From contig CAVPOM010000016.1 of NCBI GenBank assembly GCA_963707025.1, positions 124,047 to 188,046 of the forward strand: 64,000 nt of DNA. Direction: 5' to 3'. Each line of letters starts with the position of its first letter. Position 1 is the first letter of the stretch. Both the position numbers and the translations under genes were made by a program. The notes under the pieces are model-generated. The model was not told the origin of the DNA. It did not search any database and saw only the letters and a program-made list of their open reading frames with translations. Source of the DNA: an uncultured Verrucomicrobiae bacterium (GTDB lineage Bacteria; Verrucomicrobiota; Verrucomicrobiia; Limisphaerales; Palsa-1400). Below, piece after piece: positions 43,134 to 64,000 of the stretch.

Positions 43134-43148
43134 TTCGCAGAAGAGCCC

Positions 43149-43272: not shown

Positions 43273-43326
43273 CACACCGGTTCTGCGACTTTTCGGGTCG
43301 GCGATTTTCGAGGATTCAGTAAAAGT

Positions 43327-45466: not shown

Positions 45467-45686
45467 GAAATATATCTCGATAGCTGCTATGATTATAGGA
45501 TTGATGGCGGGTGGTTCTGTTGCTATGGCTTCACGTCAATGTAATGTGACGATAACTTACACTTGCGTGTATAATGATTGCTTCAGCTTTAGTGGAGGTG
45601 GAATTATATATTGCAGTAGCGGCACTACGTGTTCCTGTCAGCCGACTGATACAGAGAATACTGATTGCGGTTGCTTTTTATCGTAA
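45453..45686 (+). CDS. Secreted cysteine-rich peptide (8 Cys in ~51 mature residues)
   Basis: AGGAG RBS; MKKYKKYISIAAMIIGLMAGGSVAMA leader; YCSSGTTCSCQ...DCGC. Confidence 0.78.
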   Translation: MKKYKKYISIAAMIIGLMAGGSVAMASRQCNVTITYTCVYNDCFSFSGGGIIYCSSGTTCSCQPTDTENTDCGCFLS

Positions 45687-45780
45687 TTGGAGCTACGCGC
45701 GACTGTGGGGTTGTTGTTTGTAACCAAGATGGCTGTAGTTTTTGTCCTGCTCGTCATCTAAGGTTGGGTAGTTTGGCTGC

Positions 45781-46354: not shown

Positions 46355-46447
46355 GATTCGTCTTATTTCATTTGATTTTGGTGTGGCGATTTGTCAATTT
46401 TAGGCTGTCCGGATGATGGACATGTGGTAAGATAGCAAACGGTAGCA

Positions 46448-46933
46448 ATGAGCACTTTGCTTGATTGTATGAATGCGATTCGGAAACCTTTGAAAACGGA
46501 GGGTGCCAACCCTGGCTTGGCGCTTCTGATAAAGCGTTATTTTCGCTTTGGAGTTGTCGGAGGCAGCGGCATCGCGGTGGACATGGCCGCTTTGTTCATT
46601 CTGGGTAACCCCAGAATGCTTGGGTTGGATTTGTCCTTGAGCAAGGCCCTGGCGGCAGAGATTGCCATTCTCTGGAATTTCACTTGGAATGAACTCTGGA
46701 CATTTCGCGATCTGGCCGTGAATAATTCATGCGCGGCTCGAACATTGCGGTTTGGAAAGTTTAACCTCATATGTTTGGCTGGCATCGGCTTGAGTGTGCT
46801 GCTGCTCAATGTGGAAACTCGCTGTTTTCAGATGAATATGTATCTTGGAAATCTGGTGGCGATTTTAATCGTGAGTTTTTGGAATTTTGGATTGAATCTG
46901 AGGTTCGGATGGAGGCCGGGCGGCAAGCCATGA
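46448..46933 (+). CDS. GtrA-family flippase-like protein
   Basis: RFGVVGGSGIAVD, AAEIAILWNFTWNELWTF, WNFGLN. Confidence 0.85.
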   Translation: MSTLLDCMNAIRKPLKTEGANPGLALLIKRYFRFGVVGGSGIAVDMAALFILGNPRMLGLDLSLSKALAAEIAILWNFTWNELWTFRDLAVNNSCAARTLRFGKFNLICLAGIGLSVLLLNVETRCFQMNMYLGNLVAILIVSFWNFGLNLRFGWRPGGKP

Positions 46934-48171
46934 TCACACTATCGCGCCACGATCAACATCTTTATGGATGCCTGATTTTGTTCAAAGGTTTGTATCTCGC
47001 ACTCCTTTCTGCCGCTTTGCTTTTGTGGCCAACGTCTAGAGAGGACACCATTTTCCATTCTGCCGGGGCGAACTGGACAGTGGAGGGTTATCTGAAGTTC
47101 GGAAGCCATTTTGACACATGGGACGCAGAGCATTACTTGTTTTTGAGCCGGGAAGGATACAAAAGCGGTCTCGCGGCGTGTGCGTTTTATCCGCTGTATC
47201 CGATGGTCATCCGGTGGGTTTCAGCAGCCATGGGAGGCCACGAGGTTTTGACTGCCATGCTGCTGGCGAATCTATTTTCGTTGGCGGCTTTCCTGCTTTT
47301 TTTTCACCTGGTCGCCCGGCGTTATGGCGAAAAGGTGGCCCTTCTGGCGCTGGCGCTCTTGCTGGTTTTTCCCGGCTCGCTGTTCTACCAATTTATTTAT
47401 ACGGAGTCGCTGTTTTTTCTTTTACTGATGCTCTTTTGTTACGCCTTGGAGCTGGAACATCGTTCGCTGGCGCTGGTGACGGGTTTCTTGCTGCCGCTGA
47501 CACGGGCGGTGGGCATTTTCTGCGTCTTTCCGCTTTTGTGGCTTCTGTTTTTCAGGTCGCCGCCGGCCTGGTGGGTGGCACTGGCCGACCGAAAGAACTG
47601 GGCCGCCAGGATCGCACGGTTTGTAGGGCCGCGTTCCGGCGATTTGCCGGTATTGAATTCCCCACGTTGGAGTGGGGCGGGCGCTGTGTGGGTGTTTCTA
47701 GCTCCATTGTTGGGATGGGCCGCTTACTTTCTGCTTATGCAGAAATGGACGGGTAATGCCTTCGAGGGGATTGAGGCCCAGAAACAGTTTCATGCGCAAT
47801 CCATCCATAATCTGTTTGACCCGGTTGGGTTTGTGACGCAGTTGTTCAATGCAACCGAATGGCACGCATTCAGAGGATCGGTGCTGGATCGTTGCGTTTT
47901 TATTCTGGTGATCTACTGTTTTCCGCTGATCTGGAAACTGGACAAAAGCTGGGGCCTATGGGCGTTTTTCCTCGGGGTGGTGCCAGCGGTAAGCGGCGGG
48001 TTCGCCTCCTACACGCGGTTTGCCTCGGTGGTGTTTCCGCTGTTTGTGGCTCTGGCAGTGTTCTTGAGCAAGTCTGGGATGCGTTGGTGGCGCTGGCTGT
48101 TCCTGGCGACCTTCGTCACCTTGCATTTGATATTGGTCTGGCGATTTGTGAATTATAGGTGGGCCGGATGA
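46930..48171 (+). CDS. GT-C glycosyltransferase (PIG-V-like mannosyltransferase)
   Basis: WDAEHYL...GY, AFYPLYP, FPGSLF...YTESLF, LTRAVG, RFASVVFP; multi-TM. Confidence 0.82.
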   Translation: MITLSRHDQHLYGCLILFKGLYLALLSAALLLWPTSREDTIFHSAGANWTVEGYLKFGSHFDTWDAEHYLFLSREGYKSGLAACAFYPLYPMVIRWVSAAMGGHEVLTAMLLANLFSLAAFLLFFHLVARRYGEKVALLALALLLVFPGSLFYQFIYTESLFFLLLMLFCYALELEHRSLALVTGFLLPLTRAVGIFCVFPLLWLLFFRSPPAWWVALADRKNWAARIARFVGPRSGDLPVLNSPRWSGAGAVWVFLAPLLGWAAYFLLMQKWTGNAFEGIEAQKQFHAQSIHNLFDPVGFVTQLFNATEWHAFRGSVLDRCVFILVIYCFPLIWKLDKSWGLWAFFLGVVPAVSGGFASYTRFASVVFPLFVALAVFLSKSGMRWWRWLFLATFVTLHLILVWRFVNYRWAG

Positions 48172-49469
48172 TGAACATGGACTCTCTCAATCATGGCCGT
48201 GCGGCCTTGTGGACCTATGTTGCCAATTGGGTCGCGCGGCATCGGTTTGCAGTGGCCTATTTCATCGTGGTGCTGAGTTGGCTGCCATTCCTGGCCACTC
48301 TTGACGGATTCGCGCAGGGAGACATCTCGATTTACAGGAATGATGCCGACAGCCTGATGCAAGGCAAGATGCCTTACCGTGATACGATGGTGGAATACCC
48401 GCCTTACGCCATCCCCATTTTTGTCCTGCCCGGGGTGTTTGGCGTTGGCAACTACGTGTATGGCTTCATGATGCTGGCCGCTTTGTGTGACTTGGCCATC
48501 AGGGGAGGGTTATTTTGGGGCGGAATGCGGAACACCAAGTCATTAGGTTCCCTGCTGCCGGTTGTGTGCTATTGCGCCTCCGTTCCGTTTCTCCGGTTCT
48601 TCTTCTTTCAGCGGTTTGATCTTTGGCCGGCGCTGATCTGTGTGGCGGCGCTGTTGCTGTTCTGCGCCGACAAACCCGGATGGTCGGGCCTTGCGATCGC
48701 CATCGGTATTGGCGTCAAGGTTTATCCCGCTGTTTTCGTGCCGCCACTTTTTGTTTTGGCGTTGCGCCAGGGGAAAGCGCTGCGGTTTTCAGCCGGTTTG
48801 ATCGCCGGACTGTCGCCGATTCTATTGCTGAGTTTTGTTCTGCCGTGGTGGCGCTTTGCGCAATTCCAAGGGGCTCGTGGACTGCAATGCGAATCCCTCG
48901 TGGCGTCGCTTATATGGGGACTAAACCACCTTGGCTTGACACATGCCTCGTGGGTGGGGGTCAAGCGGTGGACAGAGGTTCATGGTCCCATGGCTACGGC
49001 GCTGCTGCCGTGGGCCAGGGCGCTGTTCATTGCGGCGGTGGTTTTTTCTGTCGCAATAGCCTCCTGTGCCGCCGCCCGTTGCCCGAAACCTTCCATAGGG
49101 CGGGTGGCGCGTTTGCTGCTGGGGCCTCTGCTCGCGTTTGTGGTGTTCAATCAAGTTCTCAGTCCGCAGTTTATGATTTGGCTGCTGCCGCTGGCGGCGG
49201 TTGCGACATTGGAGGGAAATCCGTGGATCGTCCTGGGCATTCCACTGGCGACAATGTTGACGCCGGTCATTTTCCCGTCCTTTGGTGCAGACTATAGCAG
49301 AGGTTTGAATTCTCTTGAAACGATGGTTCTGGTCACGCGGAATTTAATTCTCGTGGCGGTTTGGTGGCTGCTGGTGAGGGAACAATGGCGAATATGCCGA
49401 CTCGGAAACACGGATAAAATGCAAACCGGCGTCGGTGCAAATTGCTCCGTTGGTTCCACTCAAGCTTGA
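48168..49469 (+). CDS. GT-C glycosyltransferase (GT87 / DUF2029-like)
   Basis: GDISIY, PYRD..VEYPP, RFDLWP, GVKVYP, RGLQCES, VLSPQFMIWL. Confidence 0.82.
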   Translation: MMNMDSLNHGRAALWTYVANWVARHRFAVAYFIVVLSWLPFLATLDGFAQGDISIYRNDADSLMQGKMPYRDTMVEYPPYAIPIFVLPGVFGVGNYVYGFMMLAALCDLAIRGGLFWGGMRNTKSLGSLLPVVCYCASVPFLRFFFFQRFDLWPALICVAALLLFCADKPGWSGLAIAIGIGVKVYPAVFVPPLFVLALRQGKALRFSAGLIAGLSPILLLSFVLPWWRFAQFQGARGLQCESLVASLIWGLNHLGLTHASWVGVKRWTEVHGPMATALLPWARALFIAAVVFSVAIASCAAARCPKPSIGRVARLLLGPLLAFVVFNQVLSPQFMIWLLPLAAVATLEGNPWIVLGIPLATMLTPVIFPSFGADYSRGLNSLETMVLVTRNLILVAVWWLLVREQWRICRLGNTDKMQTGVGANCSVGSTQA

Positions 49470-49516
49470 CTGCCTTGTTTGACCTGAGATTGATTATGCT
49501 GATTTGCCAACAGGAT

Positions 49517-50668
49517 ATGAAGTCCGGCAACGCCAGAACGGCGACGTTTGTGATTCCGTGTCTGAACGAAGCGGAGACGTTGCGTGAATTCTTAATGGAG
49601 TGCAAAACGGTCTTTGCGGAAGATGCAAACACGGAGTGGGCAATTCTTGTGGCAGACAACGGCTCGACTGATGTATCCATTCAAATTGCCCAGGAGGAAG
49701 ACGTCGCCGTCCTTCGAGTGCCCGCACAAGGGTACGGCTTTTCCGTTCATGCTGGAATTCTCGCGGCTAAATCGGAATATGTGGTTTTTGCCGATGCCGA
49801 TGGAACTTATGCTCCCTCCGATGCGGTCAGGCTTCTTGATGGGATTAGGTGTCATGCGGCGGATTTGGCAATCGGCTCCCGAATTCGCGGCACGATAGAA
49901 GCTGGCGCTATGCCGTGGCTCCACAGGCACATCGGAACACCGGCGCTTTCGCTTCTCATTCGCAAATTATACCGGGTGCCGATCACTGATTGTAACTGTG
50001 GCATCCGTTGTGTCAGGCGAAGTGCTTATGAAAAGTGGAACCTCTCCGGCCAGGGAATGGAATATGCGTCGGCGATGCTGATCCGCGCGGCAACGGCGGG
50101 CGCGAAGGTCATCGAAGTGCCCGTCACTTTGCGGCGTGGCAAGCCAAAGCGGGCTCCCCATCTCAAGACATGGAGAGACGGAATGAGGCATTTGTTGACC
50201 ATTCTGGCCGGCGCTCCCGGAGTATTCTGGCATCCAGGATTGGCTTTGCTTGGGCTGTCGCTGGGTCTGGTGCTGCCGTCATTTTGGGGGCCTTTTCGTG
50301 TTGTCGGCCACGTCCGTTTTTTTGGACTGCACACGGAAGCCATTTCTATTGTAATCGGTTTTTATGGGGCTGCGTTTTTGAGTTTGGCCCTGTCCCTTTA
50401 CGCCCAGGCGCCAAAGCTCAAGCCGGTGCCGAAGCTTGCTGCGTCCCTGACCCTATTGAGAGAGGATATTTTGTTTTGGGGCCTGATCGCATTTTTCGGT
50501 GCGTTCGTAACAGGCGGGGGGTTCGCGCTGTGGCAATGGTCCAAAGTCAATTACTCAGACTTCGATTTTCTGAAATTTACGCTCGGCATGATCTATTTCA
50601 CATTGATACCCGCAACCATCGCTTTGGGTGTTTTCCAATCCCATTTGCAGAAACGGGCGCTGCTTTAA
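49517..50668 (+). CDS. GT2 polyprenol-phosphate glycosyltransferase with C-terminal TM segments
   Basis: VIPCLNEAE, VADNGSTD, GYG, FADADGTY, GSRIRGTIEAGAMPWLHR, HLKTWRDGMRHL. Confidence 0.88.
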   Translation: MKSGNARTATFVIPCLNEAETLREFLMECKTVFAEDANTEWAILVADNGSTDVSIQIAQEEDVAVLRVPAQGYGFSVHAGILAAKSEYVVFADADGTYAPSDAVRLLDGIRCHAADLAIGSRIRGTIEAGAMPWLHRHIGTPALSLLIRKLYRVPITDCNCGIRCVRRSAYEKWNLSGQGMEYASAMLIRAATAGAKVIEVPVTLRRGKPKRAPHLKTWRDGMRHLLTILAGAPGVFWHPGLALLGLSLGLVLPSFWGPFRVVGHVRFFGLHTEAISIVIGFYGAAFLSLALSLYAQAPKLKPVPKLAASLTLLREDILFWGLIAFFGAFVTGGGFALWQWSKVNYSDFDFLKFTLGMIYFTLIPATIALGVFQSHLQKRALL

Positions 50669-50713
50669 ATGCCAACGACGGGTCCACGGCGTGGTGTCGA
50701 AAACGTCGCGAAG

Positions 50714-52167
50714 CTATAGACTCAAAAGCAGCTTTAACGGATGCCAAGAGGTGTGGTGCCAAATATCGTCGGGAGGAAGAATGGCTGCTGTTATCGCAAT
50801 CACGCCTGAAATGTAGATCAAAATCATCAAAAGTAAGCGAACCAACGTTGGAATGATGCCCCAGGTACCTGTTTGACGCCTATGCCAAAGGCAAGAGCCA
50901 GCCATGGGACATAGGGCACCCAATAGCGCGGGCCATAACAAAACTGCCCGGTGTAAGGAAGAATCATATAGACCGCCGCCACCGGCAAAATGCCACCGGC
51001 CACCATTTTTAACAGCATCTGTTGCTCAGGGGCGTTTGGATTGCGATGCAGGAAAGCGAGAAGCAAGAAACAGAATGCAGCAAGCGACCACGGCAGAAAG
51101 AGCAGGACGCCTGTTTCAGCCTCAAGGAAAGTGCGCCATACACGGGTCAGGTCGAACCCGAAACCCGTGTCGCGGATTGATGCGTGGCCGAGTAGCAGAT
51201 GGTTAAAGAGACTGGTGAGGGCAATCGAAATCACGCTGGCCGCCGCAAAGAATCCTGCTTCACGCCGCTTTTTGCAGAGGAAAAGCAAAAATATCCATGC
51301 GGGAAAAATCAATACGAATGCTTCGGACTGCATCGCCGCAACGGCAAGGAAAAGAGCCGAAATCAAAAACAAGTTGTCCAGCAAAGCCCACAGTGCCACC
51401 AGCAGGAGAAGTCCCATAAAGGTGGCCGGGAACAACTGATGGGAATACACAAGCCAGGGACTGGCGAAATAAAGCAGCGCGGTCACCGACAGGGCGCCTC
51501 TTGATCCCAAGCCAATCTTGAGAGCGCACAGGTAAGTAAAAATGCCGGTCAGCCACGAGAGAAATATTTGCGCGTAAATGGCCCGCGCCTCCAATTTATC
51601 CATGGTACTGCCAAAGAGTTCGAGGATTAGTGCCAAGGTTCCGGGGTAGGGGACAGGGTGTTTCGGCAATTCCTTGTAATCCGTGTTTATTGGGGTGTAA
51701 TCGGGGAATTGAGTGTTAATGCGTTTGAATCCGACATAAGCAGGATTTGTGGATGCGCGACCCAACGGTTTGGACATGTCAAATACCTGCTCCCACAGCC
51801 GGCTTTCTCCGGTTCGCAAATCCTGGATAAGCGTGTGATGGTCGAGGCGGCTTCCTTTGAATCGGCGGCCGGCGTTTGCGTGACCGAGCGAAACGTCGCG
51901 ATAGTTATTGCGAAGATCAATGTCCCCGTCCAACAGCATGCTGGAAATGATGATTAAATAATGCGGCTCATCACCGCTGAAAACTTCCGGCTCGCTGGAT
52001 TTCCATCGCATCTGATTTGGATCATAAAAGTGTGTCGAGAAAAAGAATAAAACAAACAGCGACGCGGAAAAGAACGCCAGCGCAGGCCAGGCATGGAGCT
52101 GCCTGGTGTTCAAGGCATTGCGAACTGAATCCAAGAGCTTCAAAACGCGAAAAATGCTTGCTGACAT
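50714..52167 (-). CDS. GT-C-like multi-pass membrane protein; probable frameshift near 50870
   Basis: SGDEPHYL...S...DGDIDLRNNY, GVLLFLPW, CYGPRYWVP; a further TM segment lies in the 50714..50941 frame. Confidence 0.72.
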
Positions 52168-52714
52168 TTTTTCATCATTTGCCCCACTTCATGGATATTC
52201 AACGGATTTCGTGGTTTGCGCAAGGAGATTCATCGGTGAATTTTGCGGGAACAAGCCAGGATTTTGGGAAGCGGTCGGCTGGCCTCTGACGTTCTCCGGT
52301 TGGTTGAAGAGGACCGTCGGTCGTACCACAGCACGCTTCTGGGTTGTGGTTTTTGGTTGGGAAGGGGTGGCCGGTGCTTGCCATGGCTGTCGGCATGACC
52401 ATTACGAGTTTGGCAAAACGATCTGTGCGCCCCATTACAAAAGGGAGTGGCGGTCCGGCATTTGAGCCGGCGATTTAGTTCCGCATCCGGTCCATCGCCT
52501 CGTTCGAGGGCGTGGGCGACTGGCGCGGTATGGCTTGGCGCTGCACCGGCAGCCTGGGATCGCATGCTTTTCACGCGTCGAAAGAATCAAATTACTTGAA
52601 CAATCCGGCACGCGATGGCGTCGAATGAAATAATGGCAAAAGTAAGGTTGAAGTTTTCGCGTTCGAGCGTATAGTTTTGCTATGACCCGTGGGAGTCTGA
52701 CAAGCTGAACCAAA

Positions 52715-53446
52715 ATGCCCTTCCCGCCCTGCATCAGAAAACTCGGGAAGTCCGGCGTATCCGCGCGCGGCTTCACCCTGATCGAATTGCTGGTCGTCAT
52801 CGCCATCATCGCCATTCTGGCCGCGCTGTTGCTGCCCGCTTTGAGCAGCGCCAAGGACACGGCCGTGCGCACCACAGACGTCAACAATATAAAGCAGATG
52901 GTCCTGGCCCTGGACATGTATGGCAACGACAATCAGGACAACTCCCCCTGGTCCAACTGGCTGGCCGGCGATGCCACCAACCGCCAAGGCTGGCTTTATA
53001 CCATCAATCCCCAGGCCTCGGGCACCGCACAGTTCGACCCCCGCACCGGCGCGTTGTGGCCGGTCCTACAGAACAGCAACATGTATTTCTGCCCGCGGGA
53101 TAAACTCACCCCGACCTTTAAGCTGCGGGGCCAGCAATGCTCGACTTACGTGATGAATGGAGCGATTAACGGCTATAACTTGGACATTTATCCCCCTATC
53201 AAATTAAACCAGATGCCGCCACGCGGCATTGTCTTTTGGGAGCCGGACGAAAATGACATCAACAATTTTAATGACGGTGCCAGCAGCCCTAATGAGGGCT
53301 TGACCGCCCGGCATTTGCAGGGCGGTGTTTATGGGGAGTTCGATGGCGCGGTGGCCTTCATGGAACAGAGCCTTTGGAACAACGGCTGTGCCCAGTCCAC
53401 CGCAAACCAGTTTTGGTGTTACCCTGACAGCCCCAACGGACGGTAA
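52715..53446 (+). CDS. Prepilin-type N-terminal cleavage/methylation protein (H-X9-DG type)
   Basis: [47 protein letters not shown]. Confidence 0.92.
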
Positions 53447-53804
53447 GACGGCAGCCGCAGTCTCCGGTGTTGTGAGGCGGAAGGTGCTGAGGCTAAATCA
53501 GCCGCTGGCGCCGGCTGGTCGGCAGGCCGTCCAGGGAATACATGCCGAGAAAGTGCGAGAAATGCACCGGCTCACCCAGTCAATGTGTCGTTGGAAGGTG
53601 CTTCCGGGGACTCATTGGCGTTCGATAATTGGCCGGTAAACTGTTGCCGCGTTTTGATGTTTTCAGTGGGTTTCGTTTGTAAGCCGTTGGTTCTCAACGC
53701 CATATCTATTTCCATAAATCATTTCGCATGGACAGCCAATGTCCAACTGGTTTTGGCAAGATTGCGGCAGGATTGGGAAATTGAGCGAAGAGAAAGAAAG
53801 AAAC

Positions 53805-55080
53805 ATGGCGACGTTGGGATGCAAGAGGTTTACGAAGCTGCATTTTTTAAAAGGAGTTGGCCGGAAATTGGTGGCCCGGTTTTTTGAGCGGTTCAGGGGC
53901 GAACTGGCAGAGAAGAAGGTGGACCTGCCGAAAGGGGATTTGCCTGACGATGAATACTTCGGCGGGCTGTCCAGGCTGCTGTTGTCGCCGGAAGGGCTGC
54001 CCGGCGATTTGTGCGAGGCGCTGTTCACGATTGATGAGATGGCGGATGATGCGGGGCAGGAAGGGCTGCAAAATGCGGTGGCGCAAAGCAAACTGGAGGT
54101 GAAGTTTGAAGCCGAGTCGTCGCACGGGGATGTGGCGATGCAGGTTTGGCTTGCGAGACCGGAGTTGTTGGCGGCAAAGCACAATGGGCAGCAGTTGCGG
54201 CGTTTGTCCTCGTTTGAGTACTTCGGGACAAAGTTGGCTGAAAAGAAGGGGAAGCCATTTGCCGGGCCTTGGAATGCAGCAGCAATCGAGGGTCTGCGGG
54301 CGGACCTGGATGGCTGGTTTGTGAGCCATAACCGGGGCCATGAAACGACCCAGATCAGTTACCATGAGATTGACGGGGAGTGGTGGTTTGTCATCAGGCA
54401 CGGGGACACGTTGTTGCGCACTGCGAAAGTCGAAAGGCAGGAGACAACGCTGTTCCAGTTTCGCCCGGTGAAGGATGACGTGGTCGTGTTTTCTCCTGGG
54501 CATGAGGAGATTCGGATTCAAGCGGCGACAGAGGGAGAGAAGGAACTTTACCGGCGGGAGTTTGGCGTCTGGTTGCGCGGGGATGGCAAATACTTTTCGG
54601 AGCGGAATGCTTTTACGCTGGAGCCGTTGCGTTTGGATGGGGCGGGCGCATTAGAGTGGAAGGGCAATGGAGACGTTGATCGAATCGTTTTGCGCGAATT
54701 TGAAATCGCCTGGGGTGGCGGCCGTGACGAGGTTCCTGATTCGGAAGGCGGAGGATATTTTTTCGGCCGCAGCGGCCAGGGGAGAGGAAGCGTTCCCCGA
54801 TGGGGGCAGACTGGTGAGGGCGGCGTTCGATTTCTATTTTGGGGGCATGGGCAAGCCGCGCAAGGTGCAGGTGCGTCCTCCGAACATTCTCAAGCTGGGC
54901 CGTCGTTGCGACGCGGCGGTGGTGCAAAAGTGGCTGTCCGAAAAACACTTCCGGGAAACGGTAACGGCGAGGAATGCAGGGGTGGGACCTTTTGCGGAGC
55001 ATATTCTCTGCGCGACTTCGCCGCTGGCGGTTCTCCAAACGGCTGACCTGGCGCAAGGGGCAACGGAGGGCAAAGAATAA
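53805..55080 (+). pseudogene. Conserved-looking hypothetical protein of mobile elements, frameshift near 54730
   Basis: MATLGCKRF...FVIRHGD...FRPVKDDVV...FTLEPL continues as FLIRKAEDIF...VRPPN in the 54667..55080 frame. Confidence 0.65.
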
Positions 55081-55092
55081 GGGGTGTCAGGC

Positions 55093-56073
55093 ATGTGGCA
55101 GTGTCTGGATAATATTCACGGGCTGGCCGGCGTGCCCGCACTCTGGCGAAGCTGGCTGGGCGGCGAGTTTGCCACCTTTGAGCGTGCATTCCTGGAGAGG
55201 AGGGCAGAACCGGCCAAGTCATACCCGTGTCCGCGCCAGTGCGGTTGCGCGCATGATCTGGTCCGGCGTGCGGATGGTTCTTTTGTCGCGGTCTGCACTT
55301 GTGATCCTTGGAACTGTGACGACTTCGGCGTGGCGCGGGCTGAGGCTGTGCTGCTGGAACTGAAGTGGTCGCGCCTGGGGCGGGCGATCTGCAAGGCGTT
55401 TGAATGTGATTTCCGGGAAACGGATTTGCATTTGCCCCTCACCTGGCAGATAGGCTCAAAGTTTGCGAATGCGGTGCCGGTGGTGCTGACGATTCAGGAT
55501 GACCGGGATGAGTTCCGACAGGCGGTGGCGGGTGTGGTGGCGCAACTTGGCAGGCCGTTCATTCTGCTGGGGCCGACAAGCCGGTTCCTGGATGCAAACA
55601 GCATCGGACTTTTACACGGCGCGCGGGCGGAGTTTTTCGATTTGGCTTCGCATGTCACCATGTTGCCGGGCGGGGTGCTGCAAGCGCGGAAGAGCGGCGG
55701 GGAGTTGTTCTCGCGGTTTTTGCCGCAGACAAGCGAACCGGCGAGCGATGATGAGGCCCGGCGGTTGTTCGCATTGATGGAGGCCCTGGAATCCGAATCA
55801 AACTATCGGAAAGCGCCGGTGACGCGGGTTTTCCAGCTTTACTGCAAGGACGGGCTTTCTCGCGAAGAAGTGGCCCGGCAGTGTCATTGCGTGCCGTCAC
55901 TGATTACGGTTCGATTGCAGGCGATTGAACACAAGCTCGGTCGCAAACCGGCTGAACTGCGGCAATTCTCCTCCCAATTCGAGCGCATAGCCGATTCGCT
56001 TTCGGATGACCGCGCGGCGCATATCCATCGCAAGAGCGCGATGGATGATTCCGATTCTGACAGCGAAGATTGA
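55093..56073 (+). CDS. Putative transcriptional regulator: Cys-cluster N-terminal domain and C-terminal HTH
   Basis: CPRQCGC...CTCDPWNC; VFQLYCKDGLSREEVARQCHCVPSLITVRL (sigma region-4-like HTH). Confidence 0.7.
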   Translation: MWQCLDNIHGLAGVPALWRSWLGGEFATFERAFLERRAEPAKSYPCPRQCGCAHDLVRRADGSFVAVCTCDPWNCDDFGVARAEAVLLELKWSRLGRAICKAFECDFRETDLHLPLTWQIGSKFANAVPVVLTIQDDRDEFRQAVAGVVAQLGRPFILLGPTSRFLDANSIGLLHGARAEFFDLASHVTMLPGGVLQARKSGGELFSRFLPQTSEPASDDEARRLFALMEALESESNYRKAPVTRVFQLYCKDGLSREEVARQCHCVPSLITVRLQAIEHKLGRKPAELRQFSSQFERIADSLSDDRAAHIHRKSAMDDSDSDSED

Positions 56074-56166
56074 CCCCCATTTTGACCTTGTTTTGACCTG
56101 GTCAAAATGCCTCAAACGCCCCTATTGACGGGCGTTTTTTCATTTCCGCATCAATACCTTTTGACC
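56070..56166. promoter_or_regulatory. TTTTGACC repeat cluster with a perfect palindrome, plus a terminator-like hairpin
   Basis: ttttgacc at 56080, 56091, 56159; ttttgacc-t-ggtcaaaa 56091-56107; aaacgccc..gggcgtttttt 56114-56140. Confidence 0.6.
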
Positions 56167-56321: not shown

Positions 56322-56609
56322 ATGATAATGACATTGATCGTGTTCAAGGAGGTCCACAATACGTGGCCGGCCAAGAACGGAAAACCAGCGGGCGAATCCT
56401 ATGATTTGCTTTGCATGGACCAAAGCAACCCGCCGGAGCATCGCATGGAAGAGATGCTCTATTACCGGACCAAGGAGGAGGAGCGTCCCAGGGTTTGGGG
56501 CAAGTCGGTCGGCACCACCATCCAGGTGGGCGTGTCCAAAATCCGGCACGGCGAAAACGGCGGCAAGGCCACCCTGCTGGGTTCCATCATCGTCGAAGCC
56601 AAAAAATAA
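56322..56609 (+). CDS. Putative ssDNA-binding protein (gene V-like)
   Basis: 95 aa, beta-rich, WPAKNGKPAGESY hairpin motif, next to Rep; assignment rests on size and position. Confidence 0.55.
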   Translation: MIMTLIVFKEVHNTWPAKNGKPAGESYDLLCMDQSNPPEHRMEEMLYYRTKEEERPRVWGKSVGTTIQVGVSKIRHGENGGKATLLGSIIVEAKK

Positions 56610-56615
56610 GGGCTT

Positions 56616-57275
56616 ATGGCAACCAAAAATCCCCGGAGAGACAGAGACTGGCGCGAACCGATTCGCCGCTCCGAGGTCGCCACAGACTTTGGCATCACAC
56701 TGGCTCGAATCCAGTGGGACTTTTTTGCAACCCCGACCTTCGCGGGCACCGTGCCCAAACCTCAAATTGCGTATGGTCTTGCGTTTCGCTGGTTGCAGGA
56801 ATTGGCCCGGGTTTGCGGTCGTCCCTATAATCGCCTTCTCATTGCACTGCGTGGTGAAGAGGGCGAAGAAAAAGGGCGTTTCCACTTCCACTGTCTGGTG
56901 GGGGGAACTCTTACGCGCAACTATCACACGCTGCTTCACCAGGCGGAATGGCTTTGGAAGCGCCAGTCTGGCGGGGCGCGTGTAGATGTTCGGCAATACG
57001 ACCGCTCACTCGCTGGAGCGGACTACGTGTGCAAGTGCCTTGGGGCCAATGCCTACGAACTGAATAAGTACAGTTTTGCCAACTCCGTGACGCTTTCCGC
57101 TTCTGTTATCCGTTTGATAGCGGGTATTGACGCGAGTGGGGAAAGACGCGGCGGCGATGGACACATGAGAAAACAGGATGGTGCGAGGGCGGTTGGCGAA
57201 GGCGCTGGCCGGGACGCGCTTTGCGATGAGACATCCTCCCTGAATGCGGGCAGTCCGGCATCCGCCACGGCCTAA
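56616..57275 (+). CDS. Rolling-circle replication initiator (HUH endonuclease)
   Basis: Motif I FFATPTF, motif II RFHFHCLV, motif III ADYVCK. Confidence 0.85.
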   Translation: MATKNPRRDRDWREPIRRSEVATDFGITLARIQWDFFATPTFAGTVPKPQIAYGLAFRWLQELARVCGRPYNRLLIALRGEEGEEKGRFHFHCLVGGTLTRNYHTLLHQAEWLWKRQSGGARVDVRQYDRSLAGADYVCKCLGANAYELNKYSFANSVTLSASVIRLIAGIDASGERRGGDGHMRKQDGARAVGEGAGRDALCDETSSLNAGSPASATA

Positions 57276-57383
57276 GAGCTCCTTGTGAGCCACGGTGTGG
57301 GACGGAGCGGCGAAAATCCGCCATCAGATGTCAGGGATAAAATGCCAAAGCTATTGTGGCGCGTGTCAAAGTTACAATGGATT

Positions 57384-57426
57384 CCTTACCAAGGGGGGCG
57401 GCCTTCAGGCCGCCCCCCTGGTAAGG
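57384..57426. other. Strong hairpin in the phage intergenic region (candidate origin or packaging signal)
   Basis: ccttacca(a)ggggggcggcc-ttca-ggccgcccccctggtaagg: 19-bp stem with one bulge. Confidence 0.6.
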
Positions 57427-57549
57427 CTCCTTGTAGAAACCTTCTGCCCTGATGGGGAAGGGATTGGAGAGGGATTTCCAAGGGTTCGTGGTTCGCGTTT
57501 GCGGGCTGTTCACTTGGGGAAAAACAATGAAGTGAAAGGATAAGTAAGT

Positions 57550-57762
57550 ATGAAAAAGATGAAGTTGATTCTGTGCCTCCTGGCGGTTCTGGTTATCAGT
57601 CTGAGTTCTGCTCTGGCTGACGGGGGTTATACTCCGGTGTTTGCTGACCCGTCCACCATCACGGCGGCGGCAACGACCGCGTTCACGGCAATCGCGACCT
57701 TCATGGTCGGCGTGTTGGGCTTCTGGGTGATCTTCCGTCTGGTGAAGAAAATCCGCGGCTAA
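57550..57762 (+). CDS. Major coat protein (pVIII-like)
   Basis: 70 aa: signal peptide ending ALA-DG, amphipathic N-terminus, one TM helix, basic C-terminus RLVKKIRG; AAGGA RBS. Confidence 0.85.
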   Translation: MKKMKLILCLLAVLVISLSSALADGGYTPVFADPSTITAAATTAFTAIATFMVGVLGFWVIFRLVKKIRG

Positions 57763-57784
57763 TTTGTAGTGCTCCTGCAAACGT

Positions 57785-57828
57785 CGGGGGCCGGTCATGG
57801 GCCGATGAAAAGGGTGGCTGGCTCCCGA
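57785..57828 (+). terminator. Hairpin downstream of the coat gene (attenuator or mRNA-stabilising structure)
   Basis: tcgggggccggtca pairs with tggctggctcccga using three G-U pairs; no clear U tract. Confidence 0.5.
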
Positions 57829-57848
57829 TAGCCTCAAAAAAAGGATTT

Positions 57849-57920
57849 ATGCCTCAACTGATTTGCTTCTGTGCCGGAATGGCAATCCCTCTGGCTCTGT
57901 TCTGGCTGTTCAAATGGTGA
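57849..57920 (+). CDS. Tiny hydrophobic protein (pVII/pIX-like minor coat candidate)
   Basis: Below the ORF-track cutoff: MPQLICFCAGMAIPLALFWLFKW, AAGGA RBS, 9 bp before the next ATG. Confidence 0.6.
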   Translation: MPQLICFCAGMAIPLALFWLFKW

Positions 57921-57929
57921 AAAGAATTT

Positions 57930-60005
57930 ATGAGAAAATTGTTACTTGGCGGGCTGATGTTACTGGGCGGGCTGGCGGTGCAAGCGCAACCTCCGGTGAG
58001 CCTTTACAACACCTTCATTTTCCACAACAACGGCACGTCTGAGGGGATACAGTATTGCACGCTGCGCGACTCCTACACGGGCTTCAACATCAGCGTCAGT
58101 TTTCCGGCGCCGTTCCTGGCGGCAGGGGCCAGTTACACAAAAGTCAGTTGGGGAAGCGCCTGGCCGGTGTATCAGGGCGACACGATTTCGTTCGTGGGCG
58201 GGGCCAACAACTGCGCCTGGCTGGATGGGAGCGCCGTTACGAGCGTCCAATTCTCCAGCGGGACAACCTACACGCTGCCTGGAACATCCGCCGGGAGTCC
58301 GGTCACAATTGACGTGTATATGTGGGGCGGCGCGGCGGCGGCGCCGGGCCGGCGGTTTCGACCAATTCCCTGTTTTGCGTCACGATCAACAATACTTCCG
58401 GCGTGGGCAACTCCTATGGGATTGCCAACGTGGACAACGGCGTTTTGCTGAGTATTGACGCCTGCGGGGATAATGAGATTTATGTGCCGGCGGGCGGGTC
58501 GGCGCAGATCTGCACGACGGCGGGGCCGACAAACAACCTGGCTTTGGTCACGGAGACGGGCGGCGGGATGGGTTCGCAGTCCACGCAAGTCAGTTTGCCA
58601 CTGATTGGGGATGGGGGCCGCAAGGCGGGCGGGTGCAGTTCGATGGCGGGGTATGACCCCAATTTCACGGGGACCATTGCCTCGACGAATTTGGTCGGGA
58701 CGGCCATTCCTCCGGGGGCTTCGTCCGGCTCGGTGGTCAATAACAATGGGGCCACCATTCCCTGGGCCAGGCGGCGACAGCGTCTATCCTGGCGGGACAA
58801 ATTCACCGATCAACTATGCCGGCATGGCGGGTTCCGGCTTGGCGTCCAATGCGACCCTGATAACGGGGTTTGACGCGGTATTTGCGGAATTGGTCAATGT
58901 GGCCAACGGGGTGGGCAAGCTGGATGTAGATAACAATGCGGGCCTGGGAGCCATCAGGGGTATCGAGGGCAGCATTTTGAGCGGCCAGGGGACCGGAAAC
59001 GCATTGCTGACAGCGGCCAACGGCGATTTGGCGGCCATCAATTCCAGCATTTCGTCCGGCAATGCGAGTTTGGGCAGCATCCAGGGCGCATTGGGCGGCA
59101 TGTCGAATAACGCGGCAGCCGTGGGCAGCAATACCATTCAGGGGCTTGGGGGAATCTCCAATTTGCTCTGGATCGCTGACGGGACTCTGTCGGGCATGTC
59201 CAACGGGGTCGAGCTAATCGTTTCCAATACCGGGGACATGGCGGGCCAGTTTGGGATCGTGTCCAATTTCGCGGCGGCGTCGCTGGCGGCCACCAATGAC
59301 GCGGTTGGGGGGCTGTCGCGGGTCTGGTCGGATGGGGCGAATGTGGCGGGCATGACCAATCACCTGGCCGGGTTCGCGGCTTCGCAGTTCGCCAATTTGA
59401 ATGTGCAAGGGTCCCTGGCGCAAGCAGGCGCAAACGACTTGGGGACAGGGCCGATTTCGTCGCTGGACAGCAGTTTTTGGAATTTGAACTGTGTGATGGG
59501 CGACAAGACCTATTCGTTTGACCTCAACCCAATGGACAATGCCGGGATTGCTTCCCTGGCCGGGGTGAGCCGGACTTGTGAACAGTGGATCGCGTGCGTG
59601 GTTTTCATCCTGCTGGTGATGAAACTGTTTGAGAAATACTCGGCGGGCCTGGCCGGGACCACGCAACTGCAAGCCAACCGCATGAGCGTTCTGGGCAACT
59701 CGGTGGGTCAATTGTCGGGCGCGGTGTATTTGCCTCTGATGGTGGCCCTGGCCGGGGCCATTCCGTTGTTTATCGGGGTCGCGGTGACAACGGGCGTCGG
59801 TTCCACCTGGTTTGGGGCGTGCGGGGTGATCCCGTTTCGGCCTGACGGCCTGACATCGGCTTTGCAGCAAGCCTACTGGCTGGCCGATCAATTTCTCCCC
59901 ATCAATTTCCTGATCTGCTCGGTGCTCTGGTACGTCTTCATCCGCCTCACGGCGGGGCCGATCTGGGCCATGTCCATGCTCGTGCTCAAATCCCTAATCT
60001 CCTGA
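57930..60005 (+). CDS. Adsorption protein (pIII-like) with pVI-like C-terminal extension; two single-base frameshifts (~58335, ~58762)
   Basis: Signal peptide ending VQA-QP; three overlapping ORFs join into ~691 aa; Gly linkers, Cys pairs, coiled region, FDLNP...WIACVVFILLV anchor then further TM segments. Confidence 0.7.
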
Positions 60006-60008
60006 CCT

Positions 60009-60686
60009 ATGATTGATTACCTGGCTTTGCGCGTGTTTGGCTGCTTTGCGGCGGCGATAGTTCTTGGCGGCGCGACTCTGATTGCGGTCGTGGATGGGGA
60101 GGCGGGACGGCGCCGGGCGTTGTTTTGGGGCATCTGCGGCGCGGGGCTGCTCCTGTGTGCGACGGCGCGGGCCGATGGTTACACGGTTACGGGCGTCGGG
60201 AGCGGGTCCGGGCCGGTCGGCGTGCTGTCTGACGGATCGGTCATGGTCCCGGTGATTTGGGACAATGAGACGGGCGCGGCTGTCGAGGTGGATTGCGCCA
60301 AGCCTGGCGGGAGCGGCATTTACTACACGCTTTGGCCGGTGCAGGGCGTTTCGGCGCTGTCCTGGGTTCTGGTGCCTCCAGGCGGGTGTTATTTCCAGGC
60401 GTTTTGCCCGTCGGACACTCACGAAGGGGACACGTTCAGTCCGGCGATGGATTTGAGCGGAACCAATGTCAACGTCGTGACGTTCGTTTGCGACAGCGGT
60501 TCGTTGGCGGCGGGCGGGTTGGGCGGCGTCTCGGTCGTGAATTACGGCTACATCCGGCCTGACCAGGCGCAAGAGTTCCTCTGGCCGTGGTTTATCGCGG
60601 GTTTCACCCTGGCCTGCACCGGGATTGCCTATCAACTGATTTGGCGGCAAGTCCGCAACATCGGCGGGGAGGCGCCCACAATGTGA
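60009..60686 (+). CDS. Phage exported/virion protein with C-terminal TM helix
   Basis: Long hydrophobic leader ending ARA-DG, beta-rich domain with 4 Cys, WFIAGFTLACTGIAYQLIWRQVR. Confidence 0.7.
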   Translation: MIDYLALRVFGCFAAAIVLGGATLIAVVDGEAGRRRALFWGICGAGLLLCATARADGYTVTGVGSGSGPVGVLSDGSVMVPVIWDNETGAAVEVDCAKPGGSGIYYTLWPVQGVSALSWVLVPPGGCYFQAFCPSDTHEGDTFSPAMDLSGTNVNVVTFVCDSGSLAAGGLGGVSVVNYGYIRPDQAQEFLWPWFIAGFTLACTGIAYQLIWRQVRNIGGEAPTM

Positions 60687-60901
60687 AAAGAAACGCTCCA
60701 GGATTGGGTATGAGGCGTTTTGAGAACACCTGCGTCGTGGTGACACGGGGGCGGCGCTTGGTTCGGACCTGGGCCGGCGGCTTGGACTACGCGCACATGA
60801 TGTGCCGGCTGGATGGCGTGATTGATCTTCTTGACGAACCGCTCCCGTATTTGGAGCGCGATCTTTTCTCCCTTTATGAGTCTCTATTTTGTCAGCGGTA
60901 A
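60683..60901 (+). CDS. Small hypothetical phage protein
   Basis: GTG overlaps the upstream stop; 72 aa filling the gap before the ATPase. Confidence 0.4.
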   Translation: MKRNAPGLGMRRFENTCVVVTRGRRLVRTWAGGLDYAHMMCRLDGVIDLLDEPLPYLERDLFSLYESLFCQR

Positions 60902-62804
60902 AATCGGGTCGGGCAAGTCCTATCGCGGGATGGTGAACATCCGGGACGAAATCCTGCACGGCCATCGTTTGATCGTGACCAATCTCCCGATCAAGCTGCC
61001 GGAGTTCTCGGATTACCTGGCGGAGCATTACCCATCCCATGATGTTTGCCTTTACGACCATTGGCGGCCGGCCACCGATTTCGAGTGTCCAGCGGGGGCG
61101 GGGGTATTTGCGCCCGGCCTGGTCGGCAAGGTGGTGGACGGCGTGGCGATGGTGCTGGTGCCTTCGCGCATTCGCATCCTGGGCGATGATGAGTTGAAGG
61201 AGTTCTACCGTTACCGGCAAACCGGCGCGGAGTTGGTGGCGAAAGTGAATCAACGGGCGTCGGGCGACAAGGGGCCGTCGCATCCGGTGTGCCTGGATTT
61301 CTCGCCGTGGGGCGCAAAGGGCCGCTTTGCCGGGCAGGGCGTGGTTTACCACCTGGACGAATGCCAGTTGTTTTACAACGTGCGCAAGTATGCGGAAGCC
61401 CCGGAGGAAATGCCCTTTTACCTGTCGCAGCATCGCAAGCTCGGTGACGACATTTACGTTTATACGCAGAAGCCGGAAAACGTGGACAAGATGCTGCGGA
61501 GTTTCACCCAGGAATACATATACCTGACCAACGTGGGGAAGAAGAAGATCGGCATCTTCCAGCCTCCCAGGTTCTTCCGCATGGCGGCTTACCCTGACGT
61601 GTTCACGGGAGCGCCTGGGCAAGCCTCGGAATGGTCGCGCAGTTTTCGGATGGATTTTCGGCTGGCGGATTGTTACGAGACGGCCAAGGGCATCGGGATT
61701 GAAGCCATGAAAGCGGACAAAGAGGCGGCGGCGCGGGGCATTTCGTGGCGGTGGGCGTTGCTGTTTCCGATAATCCTGGCGTCGTTGTTTCCGGCGTATG
61801 GGATGATTTCCAAGCATGTCGTGCATAAGTTCTTCGGGCAATCGGTGGACGCTTTGGCGGCGGTGCAACATCAGACTAATCGTGTGGACGGCGGGACGGT
61901 GGCGCGGGTTGTGCCAGGGGGCGCGAATGATGCTCCGTCGGCGGGTGCCGTGGCGGGCCTGCCTGCCGGCCAGATCGGGGCCGTTGCGCCGGCGGAAAAG
62001 CCAAATCTGATTGGCAGGCCGTTGCCCGCGGCTCCGCGGTTGGATGCCAGGACCGTCGCGGAATCTGTGTTTGCGGCGTCTGAGTCTGTGCCGACCGTTT
62101 CCCATGATGTGTTTTTCGTGGGAGTGATGACCACGCCGGACCGCAACGGGCGCTTGGTCACAACGGTAGTCTTGTCAGACAAGTCGGTTTATGTCCTGGG
62201 CGTGGACAAGGAGCTTACGAGCGTGACGGCCAAGTACTGCATCGTGGGCGGCGTGATGTATGCCTGGCGGTCGTACGAGGACATGGCGCGGGAAGCCGGC
62301 ACGGCGCCTTATCCGGCGTTCACGAAGCCTGGCGCAATGGCAACGCCACCGGCCGTTCTCCGTTCCGGTGGCGTGATTGTGGGCGGTTCCCCCCGGCAGG
62401 TACTAAAACCGGCATCCGGTAATCAAGGATTACAAACTCAAATGAAAGACGAGCAACATCAATTTCTGTCGTTGGTTGGGCAGCTCCCGGCCCGGCTGAC
62501 TGTCGAACAAGCGGCCTGGGTGCTCGGTTGCCAGTTCCATGACATGCCGATCCTCATTTCAACTCGTCTGCTGAAACCCCTCGGAAACCCGCCACAAAAC
62601 GCCGTCAAGTTCTTTTCCACGGCAGAGGTTACGGAATTGACCAAAGACCGGGCATGGCTGGCAAAGATGACGAACACCATCAGCCAGCACTGGCACAAAA
62701 GAAATGTGCGCCAGAAAAGTCATTCTCCAAATGGAGCGCGGCACGGTTTGTCCCCGAATTTAGAACGAGCAAGTTTAGCGACCACCGCTGGCGAAAACGG
62801 TTGA
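60876..62804 (+). CDS. Zot/pI-like morphogenesis ATPase, in frame with a C-terminal excisionase-like domain
   Basis: MSLYFVSGKIGSGKS (Walker A), IVTNL, YHLDECQ (Walker B), SQHRKLGDDIYVYTQ, CYET, one TM segment. Confidence 0.88.
   Translation: MSLYFVSGKIGSGKSYRGMVNIRDEILHGHRLIVTNLPIKLPEFSDYLAEHYPSHDVCLYDHWRPATDFECPAGAGVFAPGLVGKVVDGVAMVLVPSRIRILGDDELKEFYRYRQTGAELVAKVNQRASGDKGPSHPVCLDFSPWGAKGRFAGQGVVYHLDECQLFYNVRKYAEAPEEMPFYLSQHRKLGDDIYVYTQKPENVDKMLRSFTQEYIYLTNVGKKKIGIFQPPRFFRMAAYPDVFTGAPGQASEWSRSFRMDFRLADCYETAKGIGIEAMKADKEAAARGISWRWALLFPIILASLFPAYGMISKHVVHKFFGQSVDALAAVQHQTNRVDGGTVARVVPGGANDAPSAGAVAGLPAGQIGAVAPAEKPNLIGRPLPAAPRLDARTVAESVFAASESVPTVSHDVFFVGVMTTPDRNGRLVTTVVLSDKSVYVLGVDKELTSVTAKYCIVGGVMYAWRSYEDMAREAGTAPYPAFTKPGAMATPPAVLRSGGVIVGGSPRQVLKPASGNQGLQTQMKDEQHQFLSLVGQLPARLTVEQAAWVLGCQFHDMPILISTRLLKPLGNPPQNAVKFFSTAEVTELTKDRAWLAKMTNTISQHWHKRNVRQKSHSPNGARHGLSPNLERASLATTAGENG
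62442..62804 (+). CDS. Excisionase-like HTH protein (probable internal start)
   Basis: AAGGA upstream of the ATG; LPARLTVEQAAWVLGCQFHDMPILI...LLKPLG resembles MerR/Xis-type winged HTH proteins. Confidence 0.6.
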   Translation: MKDEQHQFLSLVGQLPARLTVEQAAWVLGCQFHDMPILISTRLLKPLGNPPQNAVKFFSTAEVTELTKDRAWLAKMTNTISQHWHKRNVRQKSHSPNGARHGLSPNLERASLATTAGENG

Positions 62805-62880: not shown

Positions 62881-63828
62881 CTATTTTTTGTCGTCTGGTT
62901 GCATCGTCCGCGCAGCGTAGGCGATGACGGTGGTGGTGATGGCTTGGATCATCTGCGACTCAAATTGGTCGTAGTGCGGTTCGGGAAGGTGAACCGTGGG
63001 GTTCGCAGCAGTTTTGATCGCGGTAAGTGCGCTGTTCAACCAGGTGGAGGTAGCGGAACCAAGCCGCGTTTGCCAGCTTCGCTTTAATTCGGGCTGCCGG
63101 GCCGAGTCTTTGTTTTTTGGGTCCACGGGAACTGACGTGAAAAACGGATCGAGCGCCGTGCGGCATCTGGCTACGGCCATATCATAGAAGCCTTCTGCGT
63201 GGAGTGATTGTGCCTGGCGCAGAGCTTCGTAGGACCGATTAAGGGCTTGGCAATTTTCGATTGGCACTGCGGGAAGTTCAACCAGGTGAACCACCCCAAA
63301 GCCCGTGTTTGGTAAAACACGTTCAATCCAGGTTGACCGAGGAATCCTGATGGATAATTTTGCCGTCAGGCGGAGCACACTGCGAACTCCCCATATTGCC
63401 GGGCGCTGCGTCTTTGGATCTCCTTCGATGGGCCGATGTTCCTCAACGGTCAGTTGACAATCAATGTTCAGAGCCAAGTCTTTGCCATCACGCTGCCGTT
63501 CCATTGCCGTGACACGCTTCGCATCAATGGGAAACTCCAGGGACAGGTATTCAGGGCCGACATAATGCGCGTGGGTGCGCTGAACACGAACCAGCCTTAA
63601 AGGAATTGCGTCCGCCAATTTTCCAACGTTATCGCGCGACAATTGCGCGTCAAGCCCAGTGAAAACATAATCTGCGAGCTTCTCGTGCAGAGGATAGTAA
63701 TCGAGCTTAACGGGAATCATGAGGCGGGGATAGATCGCGCCACCGGTTCCGAACAATAGCGCCTCATCAACGGAAATGCCCGCGAGTCCAGAGCCGCTGG
63801 CGAGGCATGAAAACATTTGGTCGCTCAT
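62881..63828 (-). CDS. Hypothetical protein with HEPN-like C-terminal domain
   Basis: LRQAQSLHAEGFYDMAVARCRTALD ... AANPTVH ... ESQMIQAITTTVIAY; beta-rich N-terminal half. Confidence 0.55.
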   Translation of the reverse strand: MSDQMFSCLASGSGLAGISVDEALLFGTGGAIYPRLMIPVKLDYYPLHEKLADYVFTGLDAQLSRDNVGKLADAIPLRLVRVQRTHAHYVGPEYLSLEFPIDAKRVTAMERQRDGKDLALNIDCQLTVEEHRPIEGDPKTQRPAIWGVRSVLRLTAKLSIRIPRSTWIERVLPNTGFGVVHLVELPAVPIENCQALNRSYEALRQAQSLHAEGFYDMAVARCRTALDPFFTSVPVDPKNKDSARQPELKRSWQTRLGSATSTWLNSALTAIKTAANPTVHLPEPHYDQFESQMIQAITTTVIAYAARTMQPDDKK

Positions 63829-64000
63829 AAATTTTTCACATGCTAACTGATAAGAATCTCGGGTCCACTCCTTTACGGAGCAGTGGGCCAAATCTTGCAA
63901 ACCGTAACCACCGATAACCTCAGAGTGCCGCCCTGGTGCCATAGAATCCGCCACGGCACGCCGTCACCGGTCTTGGCGTTCGCCTTCACTGATTCACCGC

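Follow-up and report, generated by a model that had tools for sequence, protein, structure and literature searches.

The 64,000-nucleotide stretch of DNA analysed here (the window) comes from an uncultured Verrucomicrobiae bacterium (assembly GCA_963707025.1) and carries, at positions 56322-62804, a block of plus-strand genes that we are confident is a real inovirus-like prophage. The window is the end of contig C16 in a host genome assembly of 18 contigs that is 88% complete. The block had been singled out in an earlier reading of the letters alone (the original prediction), and all of the parts listed there are present on the plus strand in the order given: a 95-aa open reading frame (ORF), a 219-aa ORF, a GC-rich hairpin, a 70-aa ORF, a 23-aa ORF, a Gly-rich exported protein, a 225-aa exported protein and an ATPase. 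The Zot, coat, gene V-like, pIX-like and pIII-like products all match filamentous-phage proteins, which bears out the prophage assignment, and the host very probably belongs, as was proposed, to the Verrucomicrobiota.

We favour, at a little better than even confidence, a reading in which this block lies inside an att-bounded element of about 27.7 kb that excises whole, replicates by rolling circle and is extruded as a long filament. What is observed is the genes and what they resemble, an integrase, att repeats, a conserved origin and the occurrence of the block twice in the genome; the rest of the reading is interpretation. The integrase, the att sites, the cargo, the fused tail of pIII and a set of coat-less relatives are features that go beyond the original prediction.

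Virion and morphogenesis genes

The morphogenesis ATPase (60876-62406, plus strand, about 509 aa) has Walker A at residue 8, Walker B near residue 158 and a transmembrane (TM) segment near residue 293. A comparison with Zot/pI profiles had been put forward as a test that could overturn the prophage assignment, and it places the protein with the Zot/pI type: the match to Pfam reaches 48.2 bits (cut-off 20.3) and that to PHROG 1675, the family of M13 pI, has an E value of 7e-12. By sequence, then, the block encodes the pI/Zot ATPase with a TM segment that is expected of an inovirus. The single ORF of 660 aa that ends at 62804 comprises two genes, Zot and a separate gene of 120 aa, which a one-base difference near 62399 puts into one frame. 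Of the five closest Zot relatives, three terminate on a motif just before 62406, and the 120-aa gene is free-standing on contigs C9 and C17 and on several further contigs.

This 120-aa gene (62442-62804, plus strand) has no Pfam match, and its position suggests that it is excisionase-like (xis-like). It comes after Zot or Rep and ahead of the integrase in many related loci. Even in relatives down to 32-34% Zot identity (L018, L157, L017, L037, L108, L110, L033 and L109) the xis-like gene, an integrase or both follow Zot, which argues that the lysogeny module travels with the virion genes. A Pfam scan found no secretin in the phage block or the element, and the host genome has six secretin genes. 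The earlier proposal that a host secretin would be needed is in keeping with these counts; as a novelty it does not stand, since VGJphi and Pf1 are likewise without a secretin.

The major coat precursor (57550-57762, plus strand, 70 aa) has a signal peptide and a mature helix of about 47 aa. It matches the PHROG major coat family (E = 0.007), and a profile of its 23 members aligns over its full length with M13 procoat (8ixk, E = 8e-4; 1ifk, E = 0.027) and with a four-phage pVIII profile (hhalign, 72%). The view of the 70-aa protein as a coat thus holds up by profile comparison, which was used here in place of a fold. A chloroplast PsbY repeat protein, which headed the PDB rows returned for this profile, was set aside as a hydrophobic-repeat artefact. 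The 23-aa TM ORF that follows (57849-57920, plus strand) appears to encode a pIX-like tip protein: a nine-sequence profile scores 16.7 against pIX and VGJ orf29 (E = 7e-4), where the best of 30 shuffles reaches 10.4. Short single-TM structural proteins, including a coat of the pVIII type, are therefore present as far as sequence comparison can tell.

The pIII-like adsorption protein (57930-60005, plus strand) is a single ORF of 691 aa in the copy on contig C7, and is spread over three frames in the window, with breaks near 58331 and 58767. The start of its last 190 residues aligns with the extreme end of pIII from five reference phages (score 21.1, E = 6e-4; best shuffle 13.3), and this end-match lies about 120 residues ahead of the stop codon, leaving a C-terminal extension of about 120 aa. 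In a model of the tail (pLDDT 74) a hairpin and helix are followed by helices of about 39, 13 and 33 residues; the helices of f1 pVI, in the accessible part of the f1 structure paper, measure 54, 10 and 32 residues (PMC10175506). The window block has no separate gene VI-like ORF after pIII. We think it likely that the extension stands for pVI, that is, that the protein is a pIII-pVI fusion. Among 61 distinct pIII tails, found with a search profile that was seeded with the fused form and so favours it, 52 continue the frame of the pIII end, two of these being from the window's own genome; in four rows, from two loci in G297, the tail is split off from pIII as an ORF of its own of about 130 aa, and five tails run off contig edges. 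The G297 loci (L019 and L020, on G297:C47) are two inovirus-like prophages arranged back to back, with pIII and the pVI-like ORF as separate genes in both.

The 225-aa exported protein (60009-60686, plus strand) ends in a TM segment and a basic tail, and we take it for a likely minor coat protein to which an outer domain has been added. In relatives the gene found here encodes 54 to 262 aa, with a similar TM tail; the tail of the 225-aa protein gave no match to pVII or pIX above shuffles. A small ORF at 60710-60901, overlapping the start of Zot, is 50-100% identical over its first 38 aa in four close relatives and has no Pfam or PHROG match.

Replication cassette and origin

The 95-aa protein (56322-56609, plus strand) is predicted by AlphaFold to form a gene V-like beta barrel (pLDDT 91). 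The top 13 Foldseek rows against the PDB are all Ff gene V protein, at E values of 0.015-0.03, none reaching 0.001; a wide structural search returned OB-fold SSB and PriB proteins at Z of about 7, and the best viral row was RstB-like (E = 1e-3). On the strength of the model we assign it as a gene V-type single-stranded DNA (ssDNA)-binding protein of OB fold (ssb), with binding predicted.

Directly downstream, the 219-aa Rep (56616-57275, plus strand) shows the three motifs of an HUH rolling-circle initiator at residues 37, 90 and 137. Its match to Pfam REP_ORF2-G2P is below the cut-off (E = 0.006), and PF23343 is found in several of its close relatives. The candidate plus-strand origin (57384-57437, plus strand) consists of a GC-rich hairpin at 57384-57426 and then CTTGTAGA (57430-57437), the likely nick motif. 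The hairpin that the original prediction had pointed out is well beyond chance: its z score is -4.67, none of 200 shuffles is equally stable, and neither is any of 509 other 62-nt windows across 53.6-63.9 kb. The motif CTTG(A/T)A(G/T)A occurs within 900 bases after Rep in 27 of 33 Rep loci, nearly always behind stems that differ in sequence, and six loci have no match; it may resemble the nick site of pC194 and phiX174. A second CTTG motif, in a weaker context, lies at 44618. The sequence thus points to a rolling-circle initiator and an origin of the kind expected in inoviruses, with nicking predicted.

Two genes precede the block. Gene A (53739-55080, plus strand), of unknown function and with no Pfam or PHROG match, lies in two frames in the window with a break near 54733. 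Gene B (55084-56073, plus strand, 329 aa) is a likely regulator with a weak C-terminal helix-turn-helix (Pfam HTH_30, E = 0.18, below the cut-off); homologues stand upstream of the phage block in L017, L028 and L035, and an Atlas search returned unnamed look-alikes only. Three TTGACC repeats spaced by 11-12 bp follow it (56070-56098, plus strand) and form a candidate operator; three relatives have short repeats of their own at the matching position. A promoter scan gave hits at chance level only.

Element boundaries, integrase and cargo

The element extends past the coordinates of the original prediction: its att repeats lie at 37493 and, in window-equivalent coordinates taken from contig C9, at about 65170. 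The att core at the far boundary (37493-37511, minus strand) is a 19-bp copy of the 3' end of tRNA-Thr(CGT). The same core recurs on three other contigs: on C9 it lies in direct orientation beside the integrase, on C7 where the second copy has the corresponding point, and on C17 within the tRNA. Past the point where the window ends, the C9 copy adds a 340-aa tyrosine integrase (Phage_integrase, E = 3e-11) and a 49-bp att; the integrase faces the xis-like gene across one cargo ORF, the 357-aa ORF seen in the window at 62881-63954 on the minus strand. Just inside the far att are three TGGTGTCC repeats (37675-37706), likely integrase arm sites, and repeats resembling TGGTGTCC lie between att and integrase at the opposite end. 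With att repeats at a tRNA 3' end and an adjacent integrase, the sequence is that of a tRNA-targeting tyrosine-integrase element. Its size is about 27.7 kb for the window copy, a figure that borrows the C9 end, and about 40 kb for the second copy (C7 plus C9). The longest exact repeat that brackets the phage block alone is 12 bp, about what chance gives for the lengths compared, and no type IV secretion or coupling genes were found among the island ORFs scanned in Pfam, a scan in which several ORFs had no match and from which short ones were left out.

The left part of the element holds NERD, DUF6573 and a 128-aa ORF, c128b (38059-39898, minus strand). c128b itself (39512-39898) represents an unknown family with at least seven copies in the same genome, repeatedly near integrases, Reps or att sites; it recurs near the far end of related elements, and in G129 it lies 10 kb upstream of ssb. 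Further cargo (40949-53446) comprises an AraC regulator, exported and MauE-like proteins, GtrA, GT87, GT2, two further membrane proteins and a prepilin-type gene, of which the stretch from GtrA to the pilin gene shows 79-87% identity to the C7 copy. Within it, GtrA, GT87, GT2 and two multi-TM proteins (46448-52167) resemble a surface-glycosylation cassette, partly duplicated in the C7 copy, that could alter phage receptors.

A truncated integrase (36860-37396), with 89% identity over 110 aa to the C9 integrase, lies immediately beyond the att at 37493; judged by sequence, the element sits in the start of an older, decayed relative. Each end of contig C17 (7566-9365 and 223369-225118) has an att, an integrase, the xis-like gene and roughly the last 130 bp of Zot, beyond which the cargo is unrelated; these loci are likely descendants of the phage element minus its virion genes. 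The host DNA left of the element includes, at 29603-36820, a gene cluster for large exported proteins and for enzymes that, judged by sequence, likely degrade pectin. Elsewhere in the genome, two tRNA arrays of about ten genes each (C2:106,500-112,200 and C8:72,400-81,800) are probably on other mobile elements.

A model for the life cycle of the element

In the model that we favour, the element would be excised as one circle by its own tyrosine integrase and predicted excisionase. Rep would nick at the CTTG motif after the hairpin and start rolling-circle replication, and the gene V-like protein would coat the displaced strand, which Zot and one of the six host secretins would then extrude in the 47-aa coat. 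The leading tip would be capped by the product of the 23-aa ORF and the 225-aa protein, the other tip by the single pIII-pVI polypeptide. Neither an inner att site nor a second origin of this type was found, so the copied unit would be the whole element, including the glycosylation cargo, and it may be packaged whole. Filament length tracks genome length in filamentous phages, and a filament of the whole element, scaled from 860 nm for the 6.4-kb Ff genome, would measure about 3.7 micrometres.

Several observations weigh against this model. In the assembly both copies have at least one gene that is not intact. The second copy of the phage block is divided between the ends of contigs C7 and C9, at 97-99% identity to the window; on C9 a premature stop interrupts pIII and Zot changes frame, and C7 runs out before Zot. 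The integrase end of the window copy is not assembled. The two copies are 97% identical from 53.6 kb onward and only 79-94% in the cargo and left arm, so that phage block and cargo have separate histories. Distant relatives are compact: 4.6-11.3 kb for terminal-repeat contigs, whose probable circularity in itself counts in favour of the model, 9.1 kb for a prophage at tRNA-Arg and 8.2 kb for one that lies in a 24-bp repeat. So are the four Verrucomicrobia species of Roux 2019, at 5.7-11.9 kb in the accessible part of that paper (PMC6813254). The pIII tail fits pVI in position, size and predicted helix lengths, and its score of 8.9 against a five-sequence pVI profile is within shuffles; its model found no Foldseek match, and an Atlas search gave only leads below 0.9 (111-128-aa hypotheticals and TspB). 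Finally, no particle, circle or attP junction was seen, attP having been checked in four of 23 public runs, whose short contigs are uninformative either way; a search of public runs turned up no raw reads or virome of this strain and no RNA set. One contig in public run X4 joins 57453 to 62442, origin direct to xis; its short side is 31 letters and it possibly comes from another organism.

Could the block be a decaying or domesticated prophage, a passenger of an integrative island that moves by its integrase while this copy makes no particles? The four frame breaks within 9 kb of the window (near 54733, 58331, 58767 and 62399) and the two C9 defects would suit such a history, and relics do exist, both at the C17 ends, where the last 130 bp or so of Zot precede xis and integrase, and in the truncated Zot of G433. 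The assembly, however, carries about 0.3 indels per kb (16 indels across 36 copies of one insertion sequence), which predicts about three in 9 kb, so that four breaks are what consensus error would be expected to produce. Each window break is missing from the other copy, and relatives at 94-96% Zot identity (L028) have open pIII and Zot frames. We consider that the pIII frameshifts and the one-base Zot-xis fusion in the window are probably assembly errors, and that decay is an unlikely account. Programmed frameshifting in pIII and a genuine Zot-xis fusion were rejected, as other copies do not have these changes.

The remaining alternatives concern what is packaged and whether anything is. A working filamentous phage might package only a block of 6-12 kb, skipping the cargo by way of a cryptic inner site, recombination between copies or an unrecognised second origin; the identity step at 53.6 kb, the compactness of distant relatives and the second CTTG motif at 44618 are all compatible with this. 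No inner direct repeat exceeds chance, however, and in G401 the one Rep found stands beside the far att, with about 12 kb between it and the virion genes, and we judge a small packaged genome to be rather improbable. That the block is no phage at all, and represents a Zot-type secretion or adhesin module that stands beside a rolling-circle element by chance, seems to us very improbable. Of the 36 genomes with a Rep match, 26 have none to Zot, and no relative turned up in the viral contig collection; against this, coat, pIX, the C-terminal end of pIII and gene V all match filamentous-phage proteins, and relatives without a Rep next to ssb retain ssb before the coat gene.

Relatives, mosaicism and candidate satellites

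Zot matches were found in 9 of 401 class genomes with a single-protein query, in 6 of 31 family genomes and in 17 of 401 order genomes, counts that take in the window's own genome and some fragments. In the same 401 order genomes Rep matches occur in 36, of which the 26 without a Zot match are mostly incomplete. Neither Zot nor Rep has a relative in the viral contig collection, and among GenBank phages there are only nine weak, partial Zot matches. Two metagenome contig loci (L100 and L104) hold tandem inovirus-like genomes of about 5 kb.

Outside its own genome Rep has 51 matches: four have Zot downstream, 16 (in 13 genomes) have an xis-like gene directly after Rep, and 31 are unclassified. 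The 16 ssb-rep-xis loci have no virion gene between Rep and the xis-like gene, and two of them are att-bounded, at 5.6 and 11.7 kb. Their gene content fits satellites of filamentous phages, and we regard these coat-less ssb-rep-origin-xis elements as likely candidates for that role. In a tree of 33 hand-labelled Reps, the window Rep falls in an unresolved group with seven Reps from virion-less loci (support 87/95), and phage-linked Reps require six label changes, on labels under which several "coat-less" loci are cut by contig ends or insertions.

In L028, whose Zot is 96% identical, the coat gene is not preceded by the window's ssb-rep cassette, and ssb and another Rep come after Zot. Because a locus with near-identical Zot is arranged differently, and because of the grouping in the Rep tree, the ssb-Rep-origin-coat order is likely the mark of a swapped cassette; its likely source is the coat-less elements found in the same bacterial order. 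The accessible text of Roux 2019 (PMC6813254) states that inoviruses frequently swap their replication and integration genes. Relatives with no Rep beside ssb keep ssb ahead of the coat gene.

G401 holds an independent element of 19.2 kb that is bounded by tRNA-Pro repeats of 29 bp. Its virion genes occupy one end, and a Rep from a different family stands beside the far att. That position, some 12 kb from the virion genes, suggests that the att-to-att circle is the replicon. A reading of L017, L033, L035, L036, L108 and L109 as "Rep-less" inoviruses was set aside, as G401, the sole case with enough flank, has this other-family Rep; the other five loci are cut by contig ends or not resolved.

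The window's own genome holds, on C9 at about 21,000-37,900, a 16.8-kb element in a 46-bp tRNA-Arg repeat with integrase, ssb, an other-family Rep and c128b. No virion genes were found in it, and it is a candidate satellite in the same cell.

Implications

The host phylum alone adds little, since filamentous phages have already been predicted there; less ordinary are the size of the att-bounded element, the likely fusion in the tip gene and the candidate satellites. Were the att-to-att circle packaged, islands of 20-40 kb would be carried by filamentous phages without lysis, which would be a route of gene flow in an abundant, poorly cultured group of bacteria, and classifiers trained on short, compact genomes would cut such phages short. 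If pIII and pVI are naturally fused, this would limit the ways in which the tip can assemble and open, and it might interest phage-display engineering. The coat-less elements would form a large family of integrating satellites; Rep-positive and Zot-positive genomes number 36 and 17 of 401. We offer tentatively, and with more doubt than belief, the broader picture in which one Verrucomicrobiota order hosts filamentous phages of 19-40 kb, several times larger than the reference phages, that package entire cargo islands such as the glycosylation cassette of the window, have a pIII-pVI tip fusion and are parasitised by origin-trading ssb-rep-origin-xis satellites.

Comparison with known systems

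The claim to novelty for the host phylum is weak: the accessible part of Roux 2019 (PMC6813254) already lists four Verrucomicrobia inovirus species as integrated prophages, along with two from Lentisphaerae. They share with the window the phylum, the integrated state, the pI marker and short TM proteins, and are smaller; the comparison is with their description in that text, and one of them may belong to the window lineage. A 6.3-kb inovirus from Lentisphaerae cultures lies outside the host chromosome, as described in the available portion of PMC11361711. Our literature search, in which subscription papers were mostly out of reach, turned up neither a characterised filamentous phage from the Verrucomicrobiae nor a natural fusion of pIII with pVI, and no satellite family of this kind either.

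The coat-less elements have parallels among satellites. RS1 and TLC of Vibrio cholerae are coat-less rolling-circle replicons packaged by a filamentous helper. The gene content also matches that of pDolos, a satellite of Shewanella phage Dolos, which the accessible text describes as a coat-less rolling-circle plasmid packaged by its filamentous helper (bioRxiv 10.1101/2023.11.28.569023). In contrast to pDolos, RS1 and TLC, the elements described here are integrated, some at least at tRNA 3' ends, and mostly have a tyrosine integrase, and their packaging is predicted.

With the Ff phages (M13, If1 and IKe; for the f1 structure, the available part of PMC10175506) the window block has in common the gene V fold, the procoat, pIX and the C-terminal hairpin and helix of pIII. 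The Ff phages differ in having their own secretin, in not integrating and in making pIII and pVI as two proteins; with neither a pIV secretin of its own nor the order II-V-VII-IX-VIII-III-VI-I-IV, the window block is not of the Ff type. The original prediction called the gene order non-canonical. Against five reference genomes (M13, If1, IKe, Pf1 and VGJphi) this is right for one of the order features that it named, the gene V-like ssb directly before Rep; a tiny ORF after the coat gene is known from VGJphi. That Vibrio phage (AY242528) has the tiny minor-coat gene right after the coat, a Zot and no secretin, as in the window, and differs in having Rep and then ssb, a separate pVI, no integrase in its record and a genome of 7.5 kb.

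The Pseudomonas Pf phages (Pf1, X52107; integrase-encoding Pf, from the accessible part of PMC4863604) share ssb, small TM genes, coat, pIII, Zot, Rep and an integrase of their own, and the Pf1 record, like the window block, has no secretin gene. The Pf Rep, however, is a Pfam02486 initiator downstream of Zot, whereas the window Rep is of the HUH type and lies between ssb and coat; Pf1 also has a separate gene at the pVI position and a genome of 7.3 kb, against about 27.7 kb for the window element.

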